Shown in pieces: positions 8,531-56,837 of a stretch of DNA of 64,000 nt (position 1 is its first letter; each line of letters starts with the position of its first letter). A program made the position numbers and the translations under genes. The DNA is from Mobula birostris (taxonomy: Eukaryota), in contig NC_092370.1 in NCBI RefSeq assembly GCF_030028105.1, positions 213,820,005 through 213,884,004 of the forward strand, in the 5' to 3' direction. Under the pieces are notes generated by a model. The model ran no database searches, was not told the origin of the DNA, and saw nothing but the letters and a program-made list of their open reading frames with translations.

Positions 8531-8885
8531 CACTTGGAATAGTGATAATCCTATTCTGATTGCCAATGTGTTCTTGAACTCCATCCAACCCATTTACAAT
8601 ATCAGCTCTTTACCTTTAATATCACACTGAGGCTCATCACATACTCAGAAAACTTCGGATTACTTTCCAAGTCTGAGCTGCTTGACTGTCATGAGTTGAT
8701 TTTTGAAAACCACAGTTTTACAATTTCTCCGTCTCCGCCGCATCTGCTCTCAGGATGAGGCTTTTCATTCCAGGACGAAGGAGGTGTCTACATGAGGAAA
8801 TCTGCAGATGCTGGAATTTCAAGCAACACACATAAAAATTGCTGGTGAACGCAGCAGGCCAGGAAGCATCTATAGGAAGAGGTAT

Positions 8886-8921
8886 AGTTGACGTTTCGGG
8901 CCGAGACCCTTTGTCAGGACT
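8886..8921 (-). ncRNA. Hammerhead ribozyme motif, core-mutated (CUGACAA)
   Basis: Minus strand AGTCCTGACAAAGGGTCTCGGCCCGAAACGTCAACT. Confidence 0.7.
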
Positions 8922-10521
8922 AACAGAAGGAAGAGATAGTAAGTGATTTGATAGTGGGAGGGGGAGGCAGAGATCCGAAATGATGGGAGAAGACTGGAGG
9001 GGGAAGGGATGGAGCTAAGAGCTGGAAAGTTGATTGGCAAAAGGGATACGAGAGGATCATGGGATGGGAGGCCTAGGGAGAAAGAAAGGGGAGGGGGGAA
9101 GTGCAGAGGATGGGCAAGGAGTATAGTGAGAGGGACAGAGGGAGAAAAAGAAGAGATAGAAAAAATATATATATTATAATAAATAAATAAATAATGGATG
9201 GGGTACGAAGGGGAGGTGGGGCATTAACGGAAGTTAGAGAAGTCAATGTTCATGCCATCAGGTTGGAGGCTACCCAGATGGAATATGAGGTGTTGTTCCT
9301 CCAACCTGAATGTGGCTTCATCTTGACAGTAAAAGAGACCGTGGATAGACAAATCAGAATGGGAATAGGACGTGGAATTAAAATGTGTGGCCACTGGGAG
9401 ATCCTGCTTTCTCTGGCGGACAGAGCGTGGGTGTTCAGCAAAATGGTCTCCCAGCCTGCGTCGGGTCTCGCCAATATATAGAAGGCTGCATCGGGAGCAC
9501 CGGACGCAGTATATCACCCCAGCCAACTCACAGGTGAAGTGTTGCCTCACCTGGAAGGATTGTCTGGGGCCCTGAATGGTGGTGAGGGAGGAAGTGTAAG
9601 GGTATGTGTAGCACTTGTTCCGCTTACAAGAATAAGTGCCAGGAGGGAGATCAGTGGGGAGGGATGGGAAGGAGATTCCCTTCCTCCACCATCAACTCTG
9701 CTTTCAAATGCATCTCCCCCATTTCATGCACATCTGCTCTCACCCCATCCTCCTGCCACCCCACTAGGGATAGGGTTCCCCTTGTCCTCACCTACCACCC
9801 CACCAGCCTTTGGGTCCAATGTATGATTCTCCGTAACTTCAGCCACCTCCAACTGGATCCCACCACCAAGCACATCTTTCCCTCCCCCCCCCCCTTCTGC
9901 TTTCCGCAGGGATCGCTCCCTACATGACTCCCTTGTCCATTTGTCCCCCCCATCCCTTCCCACTGATCTCCCTCCCGGCACTTATCCTTGTAAGCGGAAC
10001 AAGTGCTACACATGCCTTTACACTTCCTCCCCCACCACCATTCAGGGCCCCAGACAGTCCTTCCAGGTGAGGCGACACTTCACCTGTGAGTCGACTGTGT
10101 CCGGTGCTCCCAGTGTGGCCTTCTATATATTGGCTAGGTGCAACGCAGACTGGGAGACCGTTTTGCTGAACACTTCCAACCTGATGGCATGAACATTGAC
10201 TTCTCTAATTTCCGTTAATGCGCCTCCTCCCCTTCTTACCCCATCCCTTATTTATTATTTTTTATTTTTTTCCCCTTTCTTTCTCTCTTTTATCTCCTTC
10301 TGTCCATCTCACTATATCTTCCTCTAATGCTCCCCTTCCCCTTTTTTTCTCCCTGGGCCTCCCATCCCATGATCCTCTCCTCTTCTCCAGCCTGGTATCC
10401 CTTTTGCCAATCAACTTTCCAGCTCTTTGCTCCATCCTTCCTCCTCCTGTCTTCTTCTATCATTTCAGATCTCCCCCTCCTCCTCCCACTTTCAAATCTC
10501 TTACTCACTCTTCTTTCAGTT

Positions 10522-10557
10522 AGTCCTGACGAAGGGACTCGGCCCGAAACGTCGACT
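10522..10557 (+). ncRNA. Minimal type I hammerhead ribozyme, intact core
   Basis: AGTC / CTGACGA / AGGGACTCGGCCC / GAAA / CGTC / GACT; predicted cleavage after C10553. Confidence 0.8.
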
Positions 10558-10819
10558 GTACCACTTCCTACAGATGCTGCCTGGCCTGCTGTGTTCCACC
10601 AGCATTTTGTGTGTGTTGCTTGAATTTCCAGCATCTGCAGATTTCCTCGTGTTTACAGTTTTGTTGGCATCACTTTCCATAGAGTAGCAACTTGGAAAAT
10701 TACTGCAGGTATTCCTTTCTGTAAAGTCCTCCATGAGCTCTGGTGGTGGAAATTGACTCTGAAATGTGTAGACCTGGTAAGGATGTTATGATATGAATGA
10801 GCCTCAGGGGCAGATACAC

Positions 10820-22720: not shown

Positions 22721-23239
22721 ACTGTTTGGCCTTGTATACACAGTTAATTTCCTCACACACCTGAGATACAGAACACACTGCAAGCAATCTTTGCCACTTT
22801 TGTTTGGCAAATGCACCACAGCATATGGCAAATGTTCTAATATGCCAAGATATGGATATTGAAAAGGTTACTGGTTATATAATTGCTAATCACTGCATGA
22901 ATATAATTACAACACATGCACATTTTAACTGGAGGTTTCAGATTTACTTTAGAATTTTACCTAAATGCCTAGTTAACTCATTCAGTTTAACAACAATAAT
23001 TATCATCTGTGTAATAGCATTAATATGGAAAGAATTCTGAAGGATTAAATGGCATTTTATAAAATAAATGGTGATCTCAAAGTAGGAGAATTTAGAAAGA
23101 TCACAAATATTGAAGTACAATAGTGAGGTATATCATTGTTCTGCTGATCTCTGCTTTTTGACAGATTTTGCAAGTGAAGTCCTCATAAGACTGAAATGTT
23201 AATTTCTGACACACAAACTTATTGAATGTTCTCAAAAGA

Positions 23240-23910
23240 GTTCAAATTCCAAAGTAAGTTTATTATCAAAGTATGTACATGTCACAATATACTACCTTGA
23301 GATTCATTTTCTTGCAGACATTCACAGGAAAACAGGGAAATACAATGGAATCAATGAAAAACTACACACAAAGATTGACAAACAAAATGTGCAGAAGACA
23401 AACTATACAAACAAAATTAAATGAATTATTTAATTTAAAAACCATGAGATGTAGAGTCCTTGAAAGTGAATCCATTGTTTGTGGACACAAACAACAGGAA
23501 TTCTGCAGATGCTGGAAGTTCAAGCAACGCACATCAACGTTGCTGGTGAACGCAGCAGGCCAGGCAGCATCTCTAGGAAGAGGTACAGTCGACACTTCAG
23601 GCCGAGACCCTTCGTCAGGACATTGTTTGTGGAATCAGTTTGGAGTTCATATGAGTGAGGTTATCCACACTGGTTCAGGAGTCTGGTGGATGTAGGGTAA
23701 TAACTGCTCCTGAACCTGGTGGTATGAGACAAAAGGCTGCTGTTCATCCTTCCCGATGACAACAGTGAGCAGGGAGCCTGGCATGGATGGTGGGGTCCTT
23801 GATGATGGATGCTGCTTTCTTGTGGCAGCTCTCCTGTAGCTGTGCTCAATGATGGGTTGGGCTTTACATATGATGGACTGAGTTGATCCACTACACTTTG
23901 TAGACTTTTC
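23240..23910 (-). mobile_element. Rex1/Babar 3' end, interrupted by 23486-23620
   Basis: Same 3' UTR family as 20660-21010; the sequence is continuous across the insertion. Confidence 0.75.
23486..23620 (-). mobile_element. 135-bp PLE terminal-module insertion (hammerhead and 3' structured end) with 13-bp TSD
   Basis: Perfect TSD CATTGTTTGTGGA at 23473-23485 and 23621-23633; minus strand begins (G)TCCTGACGAAGGGTCTCGGCCTGAAGTGTCGACT. Confidence 0.85.
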
Positions 23911-31104: not shown

Positions 31105-32640
31105 AAATCAAATCAAATAAAGTGTAATTATCATTCAGACCATACATGGATACAGTCGAACGAGACAGTATTCCTCTGGGGCACAGGTGTATAACATACA
31201 TTCAAGATAGTGAGAGAGGAAATAAAACACACACACATCATTACACCAGAAAACACATGTATAGTCCAAGTTCCTGAGGGACACGCAAATTGATGGTACA
31301 GCTCCCGGAAACCCAGGCTGTCCTTCCGCCGGTTGAACACTGGAGGGCAGTGCTGATGGGAGTGCCAGGCTCCACGCTACGCCATCCCCAGTGTTGTCTC
31401 AGCTGGACTGCAGCAGCAGACGAGCCCGCTTGAGGCCTCATCCTCACCACACCCGAGATGACACTACTGCCTCGTCGCCTGTCTCACTGCCAAAGAAGGG
31501 AAACAGGCCTGCAGCATCGCACATTATCAATGTCCAACAGGGTCTTGCAAACACAAAAGAAATGTCTAAGACAATCATTCATGGTTACATTGCACAGTGC
31601 TTTCATGCACCAACTCTGATATCTGATGAGTAGCAGGCAGCAGCATGATCTGTACACAGTTCAGCTCCTCTGAACCTTCTCTGGACTTCCTACTGGCTTC
31701 ACCTTCTCCGGCCTGTCCGCCGGCTTCACCTTCTCCGGCCTGTTTGCCAACTTCAGCTTCTCCAGCCTGTCCACCAGCTTCACCTTCTCTGGCCTGTTCG
31801 CCGGCTTCACCTTCTCCGGTCTGTCCACCAGCTTCACCTTCTCCGGCCTGTCCGCCGGCTTCACCTTCTCCGGCCTATTCGCTGGCTTCACTTTCTCCGG
31901 CCTGTTTGCCAGCTTCAGCTTCTCCAGCCTGTCCACCAGCTTCACCTTCTCTGGCCTGTTCACCGGCTTCACTTTCTCCAGCCTGTTCGCCAGCTTCACC
32001 TTCTCCGGTCTGTCCACCAGCGTCACCTTCTCCTGCCTATTCGCTGGTTTCACTTTCTCCAGCCTGTCCGCCAGCTTCTCCTTCTTTGGCTTGTCCACTG
32101 GCTTCACCTTCTCCAGCCTGTTCCCTGGCTTCACTTTCTCCAGCCTGTTCCCTGGCTTCACTTTCTCCAGCCTGTCCGCCAGCTTCAGCTTCTCCAGCCT
32201 GTTCACCAGCTTCACTTTCTCCGGCTTGTCCACCGGCATCACCTTCTCCGGCCTGTTCGATGACATTACCTTCTCCAGTCTGTCCGCCAGCTTCTCCTTC
32301 TTTGGCCAGTCCACCGGCTTCACATTCTGGCCTGTCCACAGGCTTCATCTTCTCCGGCCTGTACACCGGCTTCACCTTTTCCAGCCTGTCCACTGACATC
32401 ACCTTCTCTGGTCTATCCGCCGGCTTCACCTTCTCTGGCCCGTCCGCTGACATCACCTTCTCTGGCTTGTCCACTGGCTCAGCTTCTCTGGCTTTCTGCC
32501 AGCTTCACCTTCTCCTGTCCCTCCACCAGCCTCTCCTTCTCCTGGCCAAGCACCAGCTTCATCTTCTCTGACTCATCCAATAGCTCCTTCGACACTCTGG
32601 CCAGTAACTCTGTACAACAAACAGTGCAGCATTACTCCTG
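31105..32640 (-). mobile_element. Probable non-autonomous non-LTR element hosting the minisatellite
   Basis: (ATTTG)n-type tail and Rex/L2-like 3' UTR on the minus strand near 31105-31190; GC-rich body running into the repeat; 5' boundary uncertain. Confidence 0.4.
31674..32570. repeat. 27-bp minisatellite, about 33 units
   Basis: Unit approximately GGCTTCACCTTCTCCGGCCTGTCCGCC; gives 9-aa periodic ORFs (ASPSPACPP; PEKVKPADR). Confidence 0.95.
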
Positions 32641-38075: not shown

Positions 38076-38886
38076 CTTTAGGAATTCGATTTCACTGCCA
38101 CTCTGCTTTGTACTTCTGCTGAATGGTAAATTTGTGCTGATGTGACGTTTGACTGCAATTAAGGCAATCATTTCATTGCCTGAATATTAGTCTTTTACTC
38201 TTTTCATTGAATAAGAGTCAAGTGGCACAGACTTGGGCAAATTATTCTCTATTCTACCCAAACCACTGAAGCTGATTATGATATCCTTACTGTCATCTCA
38301 GTTGAAATCAGCTGTCTCAGCACAGAAAGATCCACATGGTCTGCATAGATAAGAAGTGGCAAGGTCACCACAGGAGCTACCCAGAAAACTCACTAAGAGA
38401 TAATGTTTAATTAATAGGCTATCATGTCACTTTCTTCCACTGAGAATTCTCATGGGATAGTAAAGTGCTAATATCCACATGATGCTCCCAGGCCACAAGC
38501 CAAATGAACACTCCTTGTGCTTAAACCAATACAAAACCAAACCATGCCATTGTGGCTTGTCAAAGCTAAGAGATTACAAAGAAGCAAATAGACTAATATT
38601 TATGTTAATTAAGAAAGTAGTATATTGGACAAGGGAATAAAGGGAAATTATTTTAGAATGAAAAAGCTTTTTCATTAATTTTCGTGGTTAAAGGTAAATT
38701 CACCAATTATGTGGAAAGCGATATTTTTTATTATCACGCCTATTTCCCCATTGAGCTTGCCAACCCAAATTTCTTTACATTTCACCCAACAAAACATTTG
38801 GCAGAAAATCAGAAGACAAATAGGTAATTGATTATGAGTTTGAGTTTATTAAAGGGGTATTAATAACAATCTCTTCCTATAAGTAG

Positions 38887-39522
38887 ACCGTTTCACTGAA
38901 TACCTACGCTCTGCCTGCCAGAGAAAGCAGGGTCTCCCAGTGGCCACACAGTTTAATTTCACGTCCCATTCCCATTCTGATATGTCCATCCATGGCCTCC
39001 TCTACTGTCAAGATGAAGCCACACTCGGGTTGGAGGAACAACACCTTATATTCCGCCTGGGTAGCCTCCAACCTAATGGCATGAACATTGACTTCTCTAA
39101 CTTCCATTAATGCCCTTCCTCCCCTTCTTATCCATCCCTTATTTATTTATTTGTTTGTTTGTTTATTTATTTTTTTTCCCCTTTCTTTCTCTCTCTTTTT
39201 CTCCCTCTGTCCCTCTCACTATATCTTCCTCTGGTGCTCCCCCCTCCTTTCTTTCTCCCTCGGCCTCCCAAACCATGATCCTCTCCCTTCTCCAGCCTCG
39301 TATCCCTTTTGCCAATCAACTTTCCAGCTCTTAGCTCCATCCCTCCCCCTCCTGTCTTCTCCTATCATTTTGGATCTCCCCCTCCCCCTCCCACTTTCAA
39401 ATCTCTTACTATCTCTTCTTTCAGTTAGTCCTGACGAAGGGTCTTGGCCCGAAACGTCGACTGTATTTTTTCCTAGAGACACTGCCTGGCCTGCCGCATT
39501 CACCAGCATTTTGTGTGTCTTG
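38887..39522 (+). mobile_element. PLE 3' fragment with 10-bp TSD
   Basis: Endonuclease tail and terminal module; TSD CTATAAGTAG (38877-38886) / CTGTAAGTAG (39523-39532). Confidence 0.88.
39427..39462 (+). ncRNA. Minimal type I hammerhead ribozyme, intact core
   Basis: AGTC CTGACGA AGGGTCTTGGCCC GAAA CGTC GACT; predicted cleavage after C39458. Confidence 0.8.
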
Positions 39523-40175
39523 CTGTAAGTAGGCTGATAGCTTTCCTACAGAAATATTTTACATGTGAAGTAACATCCCTGAGAAAACAAACCATGTCAG
39601 ATATTGAATAAAGAAAATGGATGGTTCAGGACAGTACAGTATTTAAATTTTATACTCCAACAGATTATTAATTTTATGTTTATTGCAAGTCTCCATAGGG
39701 ATCTTTTATATTTAACTAGGTTTGTTGTAGGCCCATCATGAACCGATGATGTCTGAAAACAGCCACGATTCTGTCAATTTAGAAATTAACAGCATGTGAA
39801 ATTGCTGCAAGGACAAGGAGGTGACATAATAAAGCAGAGATTCTGATGTTGCCGCGTAAATCTACAATGCTTGTCAACTATCACAGCATAGGCATCTATA
39901 TCAGACAGCCGCTGTATGTCTTACCAACCCTGGAGATGATAAATTTGTATATACGACATTCTCACAACGGAGATGTGACATCGCTTCTCTTCATTTTATT
40001 TGAAGCAGTTTTAGCTTCCTCCAGCAAATATTTCCTGCAACTATCCTCAGTTTCTTATGGTTCAAGGTTATATTTGATCATTTGTGAGTCCTGCTGATAT
40101 ACTTTTCTATCCATTGTCACTCTCCAGTTTTCAGACTTAGGTTCTGATCTACCGTTAAATGTGCACATCATGGAT

Positions 40176-53870: not shown

Positions 53871-54740
53871 CAAAAATGATGAAACTATGTACAGGGAGGA
53901 GGTCAAACACCTAGAGAGTTGGTGCAGGGATAACAACTTAATGCTTAATGTCACCAAAACCAAGGAGATGATCGTCGATTTCAGACGGTCTCAGCCTGAG
54001 CACACACCCCTCAGCATCAGCGGCTCCACAGTGGAGAGAGTGGAAAACATCAAGTTCCTTGAGGTGCAGATCTCGGACAATCTCACCTGGTCCGGGAACA
54101 CAACCAGGATTGTGAAACAGGCTCAGCAGAGATTGCACTTTCTGAGGAAGCTTAAACAAGCATTACTCCCCGCTAACATCTTAACTACATTCTACAGAGG
54201 CGTGGTTAAGAGTGTGCTGGCCTTTTGCATCACAACCTGGTACTCCAGCTGCAGTGTTGTCGACAAAAAAGCTTTGCAGAGGGTGGTTAGGTGAGCAGAG
54301 GTTACTGGGGTCTCCCTACCTTCTGTCCAAGACCTCTTTCAGAGTCTATGCCTCCAGAATACACGATACATCATTAAAGACCCCTCACACCCTCTCCAGG
54401 AACTGTTTGTTCTTCTGCCACCAGGCAAACGTTACAGGAGCATAAAAACTAAAACCACAAGGCTACTTAAACAGCTTCCTCCCACAGGCAGTCAGACTGC
54501 TAAATAGCTGCTCTACCTGACTCTGCTTTGGACACTTAACTTTCACTGGACACTTACAACTTGATTTTAACCGACATGTGGCTGTTGTGTTTTACTATTT
54601 ATTGTTATGTTTATTATTAGTGTTGCGTTTGTTATTTTATGATTGCACTGCCCCTGAGAAACGCTGTCTCATTCTGCCCTGCAGAGCTGATGTATGGTTA
54701 GAATGACAATAAAGTTTTTTGAATCTTTGAATCTTGAATC
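53871..54740 (+). mobile_element. Rex1/Babar 3' fragment nested in the PLE
   Basis: NDETMYREEVKHLESWCRDNNLMLNVTKTKEMIVDFRR...AQQRLHFLRKL; AATGACAATAAA and (GAATCTT)n tail; PLE resumes at about 54741. Confidence 0.88.
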
Positions 54741-55166
54741 TACTCACGGCCTCCTCTACTAGTAGTCAAGATGAAGCCACACTCAGGTTGGAGGAACAAC
54801 CTTATATTCCGTCTGGGTAGCCTCCAACCTGATGGCATGAAAATTGACTTCTCTAACTTCCGTTAATGCCCCTCCTCCCCTTCTTACCCCATCCCTTATT
54901 TATTTCCTTTTTCTTTCTCTCTCTTTTGTCTCCCTCTGTCTCTCACTATAACTCCTTGCCTGCTCTCCACCTTTCTCTGGGCTCCACTTCCCCTTTCTTT
55001 CTCTCTAGGCTTCCTGTCCCATGATCCTCTCCCTTCTCCAGCCTTGTATCCCTTTTGCCAATCAACTTTCCAGCTCTTGGCTCCATCCCTCCCCCTCCTG
55101 TCTTCTCCTATCATTTTGGATCTCCCCCTCCCACTTTCAAATCTTTTACTATCTCTTCTTTCAGTT

Positions 55167-55202
55167 AGTCCTGACGAAGGGTCTCGGCCCGAAACGTCGA
55201 CT
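55167..55202 (+). ncRNA. Minimal type I hammerhead ribozyme, intact consensus-like copy
   Basis: AGTC CTGACGA AGGGTCTCGGCCC GAAA CGTC GACT; predicted cleavage after C55198. Confidence 0.82.
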
Positions 55203-56837
55203 GTACCTCTTCCTATAGATGCTGCCTGGCCTGCTGCATTCCACCAGCATTTTGAGTGTGCTGCTTGAATTTCCAGCATCTGCAGATTTCCTCGTGTTTG
55301 TGTACTAATAATTTGGGTGTTTCTTTGGCAGAGGGGAGTTTAGATAAAGGAATGAAGTGTACAGACTTGGAGAAACGACCAACTACTGTGAGAATGGTGG
55401 TGTTACCATCTGATGGGGAAAGATCAGTGACAAAGTCCAGGGCAATGTGAGACCAGGGTCTCTCGGGGATAGACAGGGGTTGTAACAGACCAGCAGGTGA
55501 CCGGTTAGAGTTCTTGCCTTGAGAACAGACCGAGCAGGCTGAGACAAAGTTGTGGATGTCATCTCCCATGGAGGGCCACCAGAACCGCCGACTGATGAAG
55601 GCCTGAGTACGCTTTGTTCCAAGGTGACAGGATAACCAGGAGGAATGACCCCACTGCAATACCTGTGAGCGGACAGAACTGAGAACATAAACACGGTTAG
55701 TGGGGCATTGACTAGGGGCTGCCTCGCTCTGTTGAGCAGCTTGCACCCTGGCTTCAATGTCTCATTGTGCTGCACCCACGAGACAGTGAGCAGGGAGGAT
55801 GACATCAGGTACTTCAGTGGTCTCAGATGAAGGAAATCTTTGGGGAAGGGAATCAGGTTTTCCATTTTTGGAACCGGGGCAGAAGGACAGTAAAATTGAA
55901 TCTTGCGAAAAACAAGGACCAACGAGCTTGATGGGAGTTGAGACGTTTGTCCGTACGGATACATTCCAGATTCTTGTGATCAGTCCAGATTACGAATAGC
56001 ACCTTGGCTCCTCCAACCAATGCCTCCACTCCTCCAGAGCTAGCTTCACAACAGCAGCTCCTGGTTTCCAACATTGTAATTCTGTTCCGTGGGAGTGAGG
56101 TGGAGAGAGAAGGCAGCACAGGGGTGTACCTTCTCATCCTTGGCCGAGCGCTGAGAGAGAACAGCTCCTACACCGATGTCAGATGCATCCACCTCCACAA
56201 TGAACTGTCGGTTGGTGTCGGGTTGAATCAGGATGGGGGCAGAGGTGAAACGTTCCTTCAGGTCAGAGGATGCTTTTTCAGCAGCAGGGAACCAGGAGAA
56301 TCTGACAGATCAGGTAAGAGCAGTGAGTGGTGCAGCCAGTGTACTGTAATCACTGAAGTGGCAATAGAAGTTAGTGAAGCCCAAGAAGCGTTGTAACTCC
56401 TGAAGAGTCGAGGGTTGGGGCCATTCGACCACCACCTTGACCTTCTGTTGTTCCACCTGAATGGAACTGCCTGAAATGACATACCCCAGGAAGGAGACGG
56501 TATTGCGGTATTTCACAGACTTCACAAAGAGCTAGTTCTCCAGAATGTGCTGGAGAATTTTGTGGACGTGACCTGTGTGTTCAGCAAGGGACTTAGAGAA
56601 AATCAAAATGTCATCAAGATACACAAAAACAAATCGGTTCAGCATGTCCCTGAGAACATCATTTACCAGGGCTTGGAAGATGGCAGTGGCATTGGTGAGA
56701 CCGAATGGCATGACCAGATACTCATAATGGCCTGAGATGGTGTTGAAGGCCGTCTTCCACTCGTCCCCCTTGTGGATGCAGACAAGATGGTAGGTGTTAC
56801 GGAGATCAAGACTGATGAAAACTGAGGCTCTTTGCAG

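Follow-up and report, generated by a model that had tools for sequence, protein, structure and literature searches.

What is a free-standing hammerhead unit of 135 bp doing between perfect repeats in the 3' end of a LINE, and does it move by itself or by way of a larger element? The unit lies in a window of 64,000 nucleotides of the Mobula birostris genome (contig NC_092370.1, positions 213,820,005 to 213,884,004 of the forward strand). The original prediction offered two readings: a retrozyme-like minimal non-autonomous unit mobilised by the proteins of a Penelope-like element (PLE), or a truncation caused by reverse transcriptase (RT) stalling at the ribozyme fold. Our analysis led to a third one. 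The insert is probably a 5'-truncated copy of a 3.5-kb PLE, belonging to a class of copies that end at the first bases of the hammerhead, and it would have arisen by an internal RT start about 135 nt into the RNA followed by run-off at the RNA 5' end.

The insert, its host site and its hammerhead motif

Positions of the element are given on the ribozyme strand, which is the minus strand of the window, with 0 at window base 23620 and the insert extending to +134. The target site duplication (TSD) is exact: its 13 bp are found at 23473-23485, next to the element 3' end, and at 23621-23633, next to the 5' end, where the last minus-strand base (G) coincides with element position -1. Both this repeat and the 135 bp between its copies (23486-23620) had been recognized correctly in the original prediction. 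Allowing +/-3 slack, a flanking 13-mer repeat of such kind has a chance probability of about 1e-6; in its other copies, the host LINE contains the target just once. The recipient is the 3' end of an old LINE (23239-23910, minus strand), comprising the ORF end and the 3' UTR and lying on the same strand as the insert. The insertion is situated about 50 nt beyond the LINE stop codon, in agreement with its proposed placement in a 3' UTR. From the look of the C-terminal peptide, we take the LINE to be Rex1/Babar-like.

Read on the minus strand, 23486-23620 corresponds to the terminal (pLTR) module of a putatively Neptune-like PLE and, as originally claimed, to nothing else; it covers positions 0..+134, optional tail included, and is 95-98% identical to the ends of long copies encoding RT and GIY-YIG endonuclease. 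Copies of the element fall into two 3'-end classes (+93..+99 and +128..+138). The tail (23486-23521, minus strand) is the segment between them, and by analogy with PMC11167929 an RT start is predicted at its far end. When compared with the majority of 29 close copies, the insert showed five differences, two of which affect the GAAA box and the helix III palindrome. Other stretches of the window (8790-9668, 10175-10654, 38885-39524 and 54739-55303) contain longer copies of this PLE end that are somewhat older and in several cases inverted. The window also harbours about 33 copies of a 27-bp unit (31674-32578), the minus-strand consensus of which, read by eye, is the nine-residue repeat ADRPEKVKP and looks like a repetitive coding exon.

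A minimal type I hammerhead, read from the sequence following the description in PMC4209133, occupies 23587-23621 on the minus strand. It consists of the stem I 5' strand (23621-23619, representing -2..+1 with the first A missing), the CUGANGA box (23618-23612) followed by stem II, the GAAA box (23598-23595), the cleavage site between 23591 and 23590 (+29/+30) and the stem I 3' strand (23590-23587). Since the A at -2 is absent and the G at -1 is common to the TSD, the suggested start at the 5' strand of stem I holds for the stem and has to be corrected by one to two bases for the exact position, as the insert begins inside the strand and not at its first base. Its 5' end is indeed upstream of the cleavage site, by 30 nt. 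The reported change of GAAA to GAAG was confirmed; the base after GAAG is altered as well (CpG decay), and the helix III palindrome is also broken. The hammerhead of this copy is predicted to be inactive, and the GAAG change most likely arose after insertion. The core boxes, the short helix I and the palindromic helix III are all present in the majority of the family (5,662 exact copies), not in this copy. No match was obtained within the window with Rfam at gathering thresholds, which these minimal hammerheads escape, and single-strand folding of the unit on the ribozyme strand was no better than that of shuffled sequences (z -1.37). The commonest variant of the young subfamily has T at +21, in place of the C required for the canonical closing pair of stem II, and may therefore possess a weaker ribozyme than the C variant.

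The parent element and the 5' ends of its copies

A 52-nt part of the module is present in at least 18,131 exact copies in the 4.0-Gb host genome. Close copies extend 1.5 kb or more in the upstream direction and enter an ORF with RT, CX2-5CxxC linker and GIY-YIG, and the whole unit measures about 3.5 kb. In one long copy (L081), the single ORF is represented by a 502-aa frame that matched RVT_1 (E 6e-4) and GIY-YIG (E 1e-3), both below curated cut-offs; the top Atlas cluster for this ORF (0.97) contains RVT_1, HTH_animal and GIY-YIG. The linker preceding the endonuclease was seen in the translation of the same copy. Such a linker is given in PMC8557442 as a criterion of Neptune elements, common to Nematis as well, and it is on the linker that our label of the parent as a Neptune-like PLE rests.

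In 10 of 30 loci holding the 5' part of the ORF, an upstream pLTR runs directly into the element body at +138. Starts of the 5' pLTR in ten full-length copies include +94, +79, +36, -1, -76, -78, -255 and, in three copies, points beyond -715; six of the ten begin well upstream of the hammerhead and one begins at -1. Many insertions are composed of two inverted arms, and inverted 5'-truncated partner copies are present. In one case (G000:C1:9715307-9715410), two arms stand back to back and meet exactly at the cleavage site. A second preferred break was noticed near -460..-486 (L149 and L152, also L151, L162, L174 and L180), and two unrelated loci share an identical inverted junction (-468 with -206). 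In all subfamilies, pLTR positions -22..-1 (e.g. L218:700-723) combine a branch-point-like motif and a pyrimidine tract with AG acceptor-like sites, of which there are one or two; the whole ends exactly at stem I and resembles the signal reported for the D. virilis intron, while a strong donor-like site is located around -620, inside the endonuclease region. At another locus (L084:4278-5188), a PLE copy adjoins an array of 84-bp repeats whose opposite-strand translations look like a C2H2 zinc-finger exon.

The 5' ends of the copies were found to pile up sharply at the hammerhead start. The number of exact matches dropped from 5,662 (+1..+57) to 3,819 once positions -9..0 were added. Among the first 100 copies listed, a set censored at +1, 29 were lost by this extension, 25 owing to true ends and four owing to substitutions. 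The true ends were distributed as follows: one at -8, two at -7, one at -5, one at -3, seven at -2, six at -1, three at 0 and four at +1, so that 20 of the 25 lay at -2..+1. Adding the next 7 nt upstream lowered the exact count by another 25% (to 2,868), and the four losses checked were all substitutions; this small control is confounded by polymorphic sites and was not used alone. With an anchor downstream of the cleavage site, eight of 30 copies ended in -8..+3, four in +8..+15 and none in +16..+30, the cleavage site included (the 30-copy and 100-copy samples, both from chromosome 1, overlap in part). Finally, in 1.124 Mb chosen without regard to the repeat, seven of 37 arms, the window copy included, ended in -9..+5. 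This corresponds to 0.0126 ends per nt, as against 0.0008-0.0023 in bins upstream of -50, i.e. an approximately tenfold excess. Ends were somewhat raised in -30..-10 as well (4/30 in the same blind sample) and recurred near -470, indicating that other preferred stops exist. About three quarters of copies continue past -9.

Of these 25 ends, 13 were solo and 12 were joined to an inverted arm. An abutting TSD of 8-14 bp was detected by script in nine of the 13 solo cases. Solo copies with tail accounted for 7/100 and 4/30 of the sampled copies, which, when extrapolated, makes it likely that one to a few thousand of them exist genome-wide. Because solo ends at the hammerhead start are this numerous, the insert in the window is a typical member of a frequent class, and a sharp peak at this point, named beforehand as the outcome to look for, is what the counts revealed (20 of 100 copies at -2..+1, besides the tenfold excess in the blind sample).

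Explanations for the pile-up at stem I

Ordinary random 5' truncation falling by chance at the hammerhead would be in keeping with the mostly 5'-truncated state of PLE copies described in PMC8557442. It predicts breakpoints spread smoothly along the element; the enrichment at -9..+5 and the presence of 25 of 100 ends within a span of about 11 nt contradict this, and because the ends peak so sharply we regard random truncation as refuted, with next to no chance of accounting for this copy. An independent retrozyme-like family, in which the 135-bp unit would replicate from its own RNA with PLE proteins, could explain the fixed size class, the TSDs and the likely one to a few thousand solo copies. 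However, short and long copies (48 and 90, after 17 duplicate loci had been dropped) consist of the same sequence variants: none of 19 variable columns separated them, the lowest p value (0.015) was found at a column fixed by the sampling pattern, and tail and stem variants were equally frequent in both. The diagnostic substitutions that had been set as a test for such a family are thus missing between the two groups. The GAAG form occurs in just seven exact copies genome-wide, and as the other six end anywhere between -14 and beyond -1500, it represents recurrent decay and no family mark. Head-to-tail junctions of the tailed module (in this tail variant) number three in the whole genome, the window contains no tandem array of the module, and half of the same ends belong to inverted pairs typical of PLE insertion. 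For lack of a separating substitution, a diagnostic GAAG and tandem arrays, the independent family is largely refuted and very unlikely to be the source of the insert. In retrozymes, every unit of a tandem array is expected to contain a complete hammerhead, the lineage to be distinct from the autonomous element and the monomers to be bounded by cleavage sites with an intact core. Here, tandem repeats and a lineage of its own are wanting, the unit starts 30 nt upstream of the cleavage site and its core is changed; by the definitions given in PMC7229834 and bioRxiv 10.64898/2026.07.22.740005, it is not a retrozyme.

The remaining alternatives concern events on a longer template. RT copying a longer RNA from the 3' pLTR might fall off at this place because of an obstacle, for example refolding of the hammerhead or of new cDNA, a hybrid that is weak along the pyrimidine tract, or splicing factors occupying the acceptor-like signal that ends at -1. 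Such an obstacle would account for long copies without any transfer step and for the other preferred stops; in all subfamilies seen, a pyrimidine tract ends in YAG at -1, accompanied in the young one by a branch-point-like motif, and folding predicts a hairpin whose loop lies at about -4..+1. That hairpin is weak, however (z -1.1), the left edge of the pile is sharp at -2 (seven ends, as against one at -3), and the jumps recorded in duplications (see below) start from -2. As for stalling at the ribozyme fold itself, the second of the two original readings, the expected halting point of RT is the 3' foot (about +34), yet few ends were located there (1/40 in +26..+45 of the blind sample); they accumulate at the 5' edge instead, when the fold has already been copied, and the reading fits poorly. 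All in all, we consider an obstacle unlikely. A further possibility is that the boundary is a splice junction, i.e. that the template was spliced, with a first exon of 2-3 nt and acceptors at 0 and -4. Splicing was put to test since the end of the D. virilis intron maps to the 5' end of helix I (PMC4209133). Here, too, an acceptor-like signal is present, and a possible acceptor follows each of the two start points at a distance of 2 nt. Plain junctions often have C at -3 (13 in a mixed set of 28), which would equally fit untemplated addition by RT. Yet a sense junction of an upstream element part at 0 or -4 was absent from all 89 broken copies, the strong donor (about -620) was not spliced to the module in any of 13 targeted hits, and the TSDs abut directly. 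These results leave a first exon of 2-3 nt as the single form possibly compatible with splicing, which is quite unlikely to be the cause.

The sharp edge fits best the run-off of RT at a fixed RNA end. The RT of the anole Poseidon PLE has two internal start sites that bracket the tail and needs RNA downstream of them; both target strands are used, and mainly uncleaved RNA is copied (PMC11167929). If RT starts internally in the same manner here, priming would take place at the junction of pLTR and body, near the front of the RNA, and the first product would end where the RNA begins. According to this model, GIY-YIG would nick the target, and +128..+138 (or +93..+99) would serve as internal priming sites of RT. 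The A of -2 would be the 5' end of much of the template RNA, with a minor start at -6/-7, and transcription start in an upstream pLTR would be the simplest source of such an end. Both start points consist of a pyrimidine followed by AGT, which we take to be initiator-like. The run-off cDNA, comparable to strong-stop DNA, could then be joined to the other target strand, yielding a solo unit with TSD as in the window, or to a second cDNA, yielding an inverted pair, or it could jump to another template. Long copies would originate from RNAs beginning farther upstream or from transfer to the downstream pLTR. These extra templates or the transfer step have to be assumed, since three quarters of copies pass -9 and most full-length 5' pLTRs start upstream. 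The other preferred stops, at -30..-10 and near -470, count against run-off, and so does the situation in D. virilis Penelope, in which a start site and an internal promoter are located within the pLTR (PMC2377424), the start site being about 120 nt upstream of helix I with the intron in between (PMC2377424, PMC4209133).

Short internal duplications of the element, in which a hammerhead core end is succeeded by another hammerhead start, bear on the same point. As judged by eye, 23 of 55 rows had a downstream piece starting at -2 and 12-13 had one starting at -6/-7, and in a sister variant it started at -2 in nine of 13 rows; not all rows of either set are independent, since some belong to the same insertion and identical junctions may have been passed on by a single source copy. 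Starts at -2 fit what is expected of end-to-end jumps from a fixed RNA end, and template-end jumps following untemplated addition are known for the R2 RT (PMC8857657). An extra G preceded -6 in five of the 55 rows and -2 in a few rows, including those of the sister variant. This is suggestive of a cap signature, which we do not claim because identical junctions may have been inherited from one source copy. Joints ending at -2 were also found in contigs of four runs; they may be genomic and were not counted.

As read by eye, the cleavage site was the exact end of the upstream piece in 23 of the 55 rows of these duplications, and in eight more the piece stopped one base before it. When compared with a uniform spread, this peak gives p ~2e-11 on the assumption of independent rows, which they are not. 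In the sister variant, which has the canonical closing pair of stem II, upstream ends were spread over +27..+36 and none of 13 rows contained the clean junction. These rare duplications ending at the cleavage site hint at cleavage in vivo, without the same pattern in the sister variant; halting at the foot of stem I, or at the palindrome, would leave the same end base. Two or three head-to-tail copies of a 32-37 nt front piece of the hammerhead were observed inside single insertions at three loci (L256, L274 and L277). It might tentatively be proposed that the genome keeps a record of the whole start-up cycle of the PLE: transcription starting at the first base of the hammerhead, a strong-stop cDNA of 100-135 nt that is often integrated, a ribozyme cut in vivo, and a telomerase-related RT jumping onto the released 32-nt 5' fragment and copying it once or several times running. 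We hold this extended scheme to be possible, though doubtful as a whole. If true, the genome would show directly that a PLE hammerhead cleaves in vivo in an animal, which, like repeated jumping onto the released fragment, could not be shown according to what is reported in PMC4209133 and PMC11167929, and it would likewise be evidence of an LTR-like strand-transfer step in PLEs.

Relation to known systems

Truncated PLE copies and single dispersed hammerheads are already known, and this locus is one of many dead copies, exposing a real and testable regularity of PLE insertion. The pattern bears on how PLEs copy the whole unit when RT starts near the front of the RNA, and on the purpose of the PLE hammerhead. 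An RNA 5' end fixed at stem I would amount to a prediction exact to the base, open to 5'-end sequencing and to the in vitro assay already established for PLEs. Moreover, a hammerhead unit standing alone between TSDs in a vertebrate genome need not be a retrozyme. No paper mapping a 5'-end peak to stem I was found in the literature searched, with subscription papers mostly outside the search; Fig. S2 of PMC11167929 may bear on this.

The element is similar in its architecture to EN+ PLEs of Neptune/Nematis type (Craig et al. 2021, PMC8557442), with which it shares RT, CX2-5CxxC linker and C-terminal GIY-YIG, a pLTR with hammerhead, an optional tail of 30-40 bp, 5' truncation, inverted partners and partial tandems, whereas a sharp pile of 5' ends at stem I with a fixed-size solo class is not among the features described in the available part of that paper. 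Poseidon of Anolis carolinensis, PAc (Frangieh et al. 2024, PMC11167929), would be alike in its two RT starts bracketing the tail, its use of both target strands and its mainly uncleaved template RNA, but it represents a different clade, its ORF starts in stem II while the long ORF here opens downstream of the module, and 5' ends of its genomic copies are unmapped in the main text. Minimal hammerheads as described in PMC4209133 are alike in the short helix I and palindromic helix III; they are mostly single dispersed motifs ascribed to truncated PLEs, as here, although in the window copy the core is broken. Non-LTR retrozymes (Cervera and de la Pena 2020, PMC7229834; Li et al. 2026, bioRxiv 10.64898/2026.07.22.740005) are likewise ORF-less, with a type I hammerhead and relation to pLTRs, and monomers of them exist. 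In these two sources, however, they are defined by tandem repeats, intact ribozymes and circular RNAs, in contrast to the present unit, which is devoid of arrays, a separate lineage and cleavage-site bounds.

Finally, the reading that we consider probable, internal start and run-off, can be set beside LTR retroelements. Their minus-strand strong-stop DNA is made from an internal start near the RNA 5' end, by run-off and subsequent transfer. The proposed PLE product would resemble it, except that no tRNA primer or integrase would be involved and the run-off product itself would be integrated by target priming.
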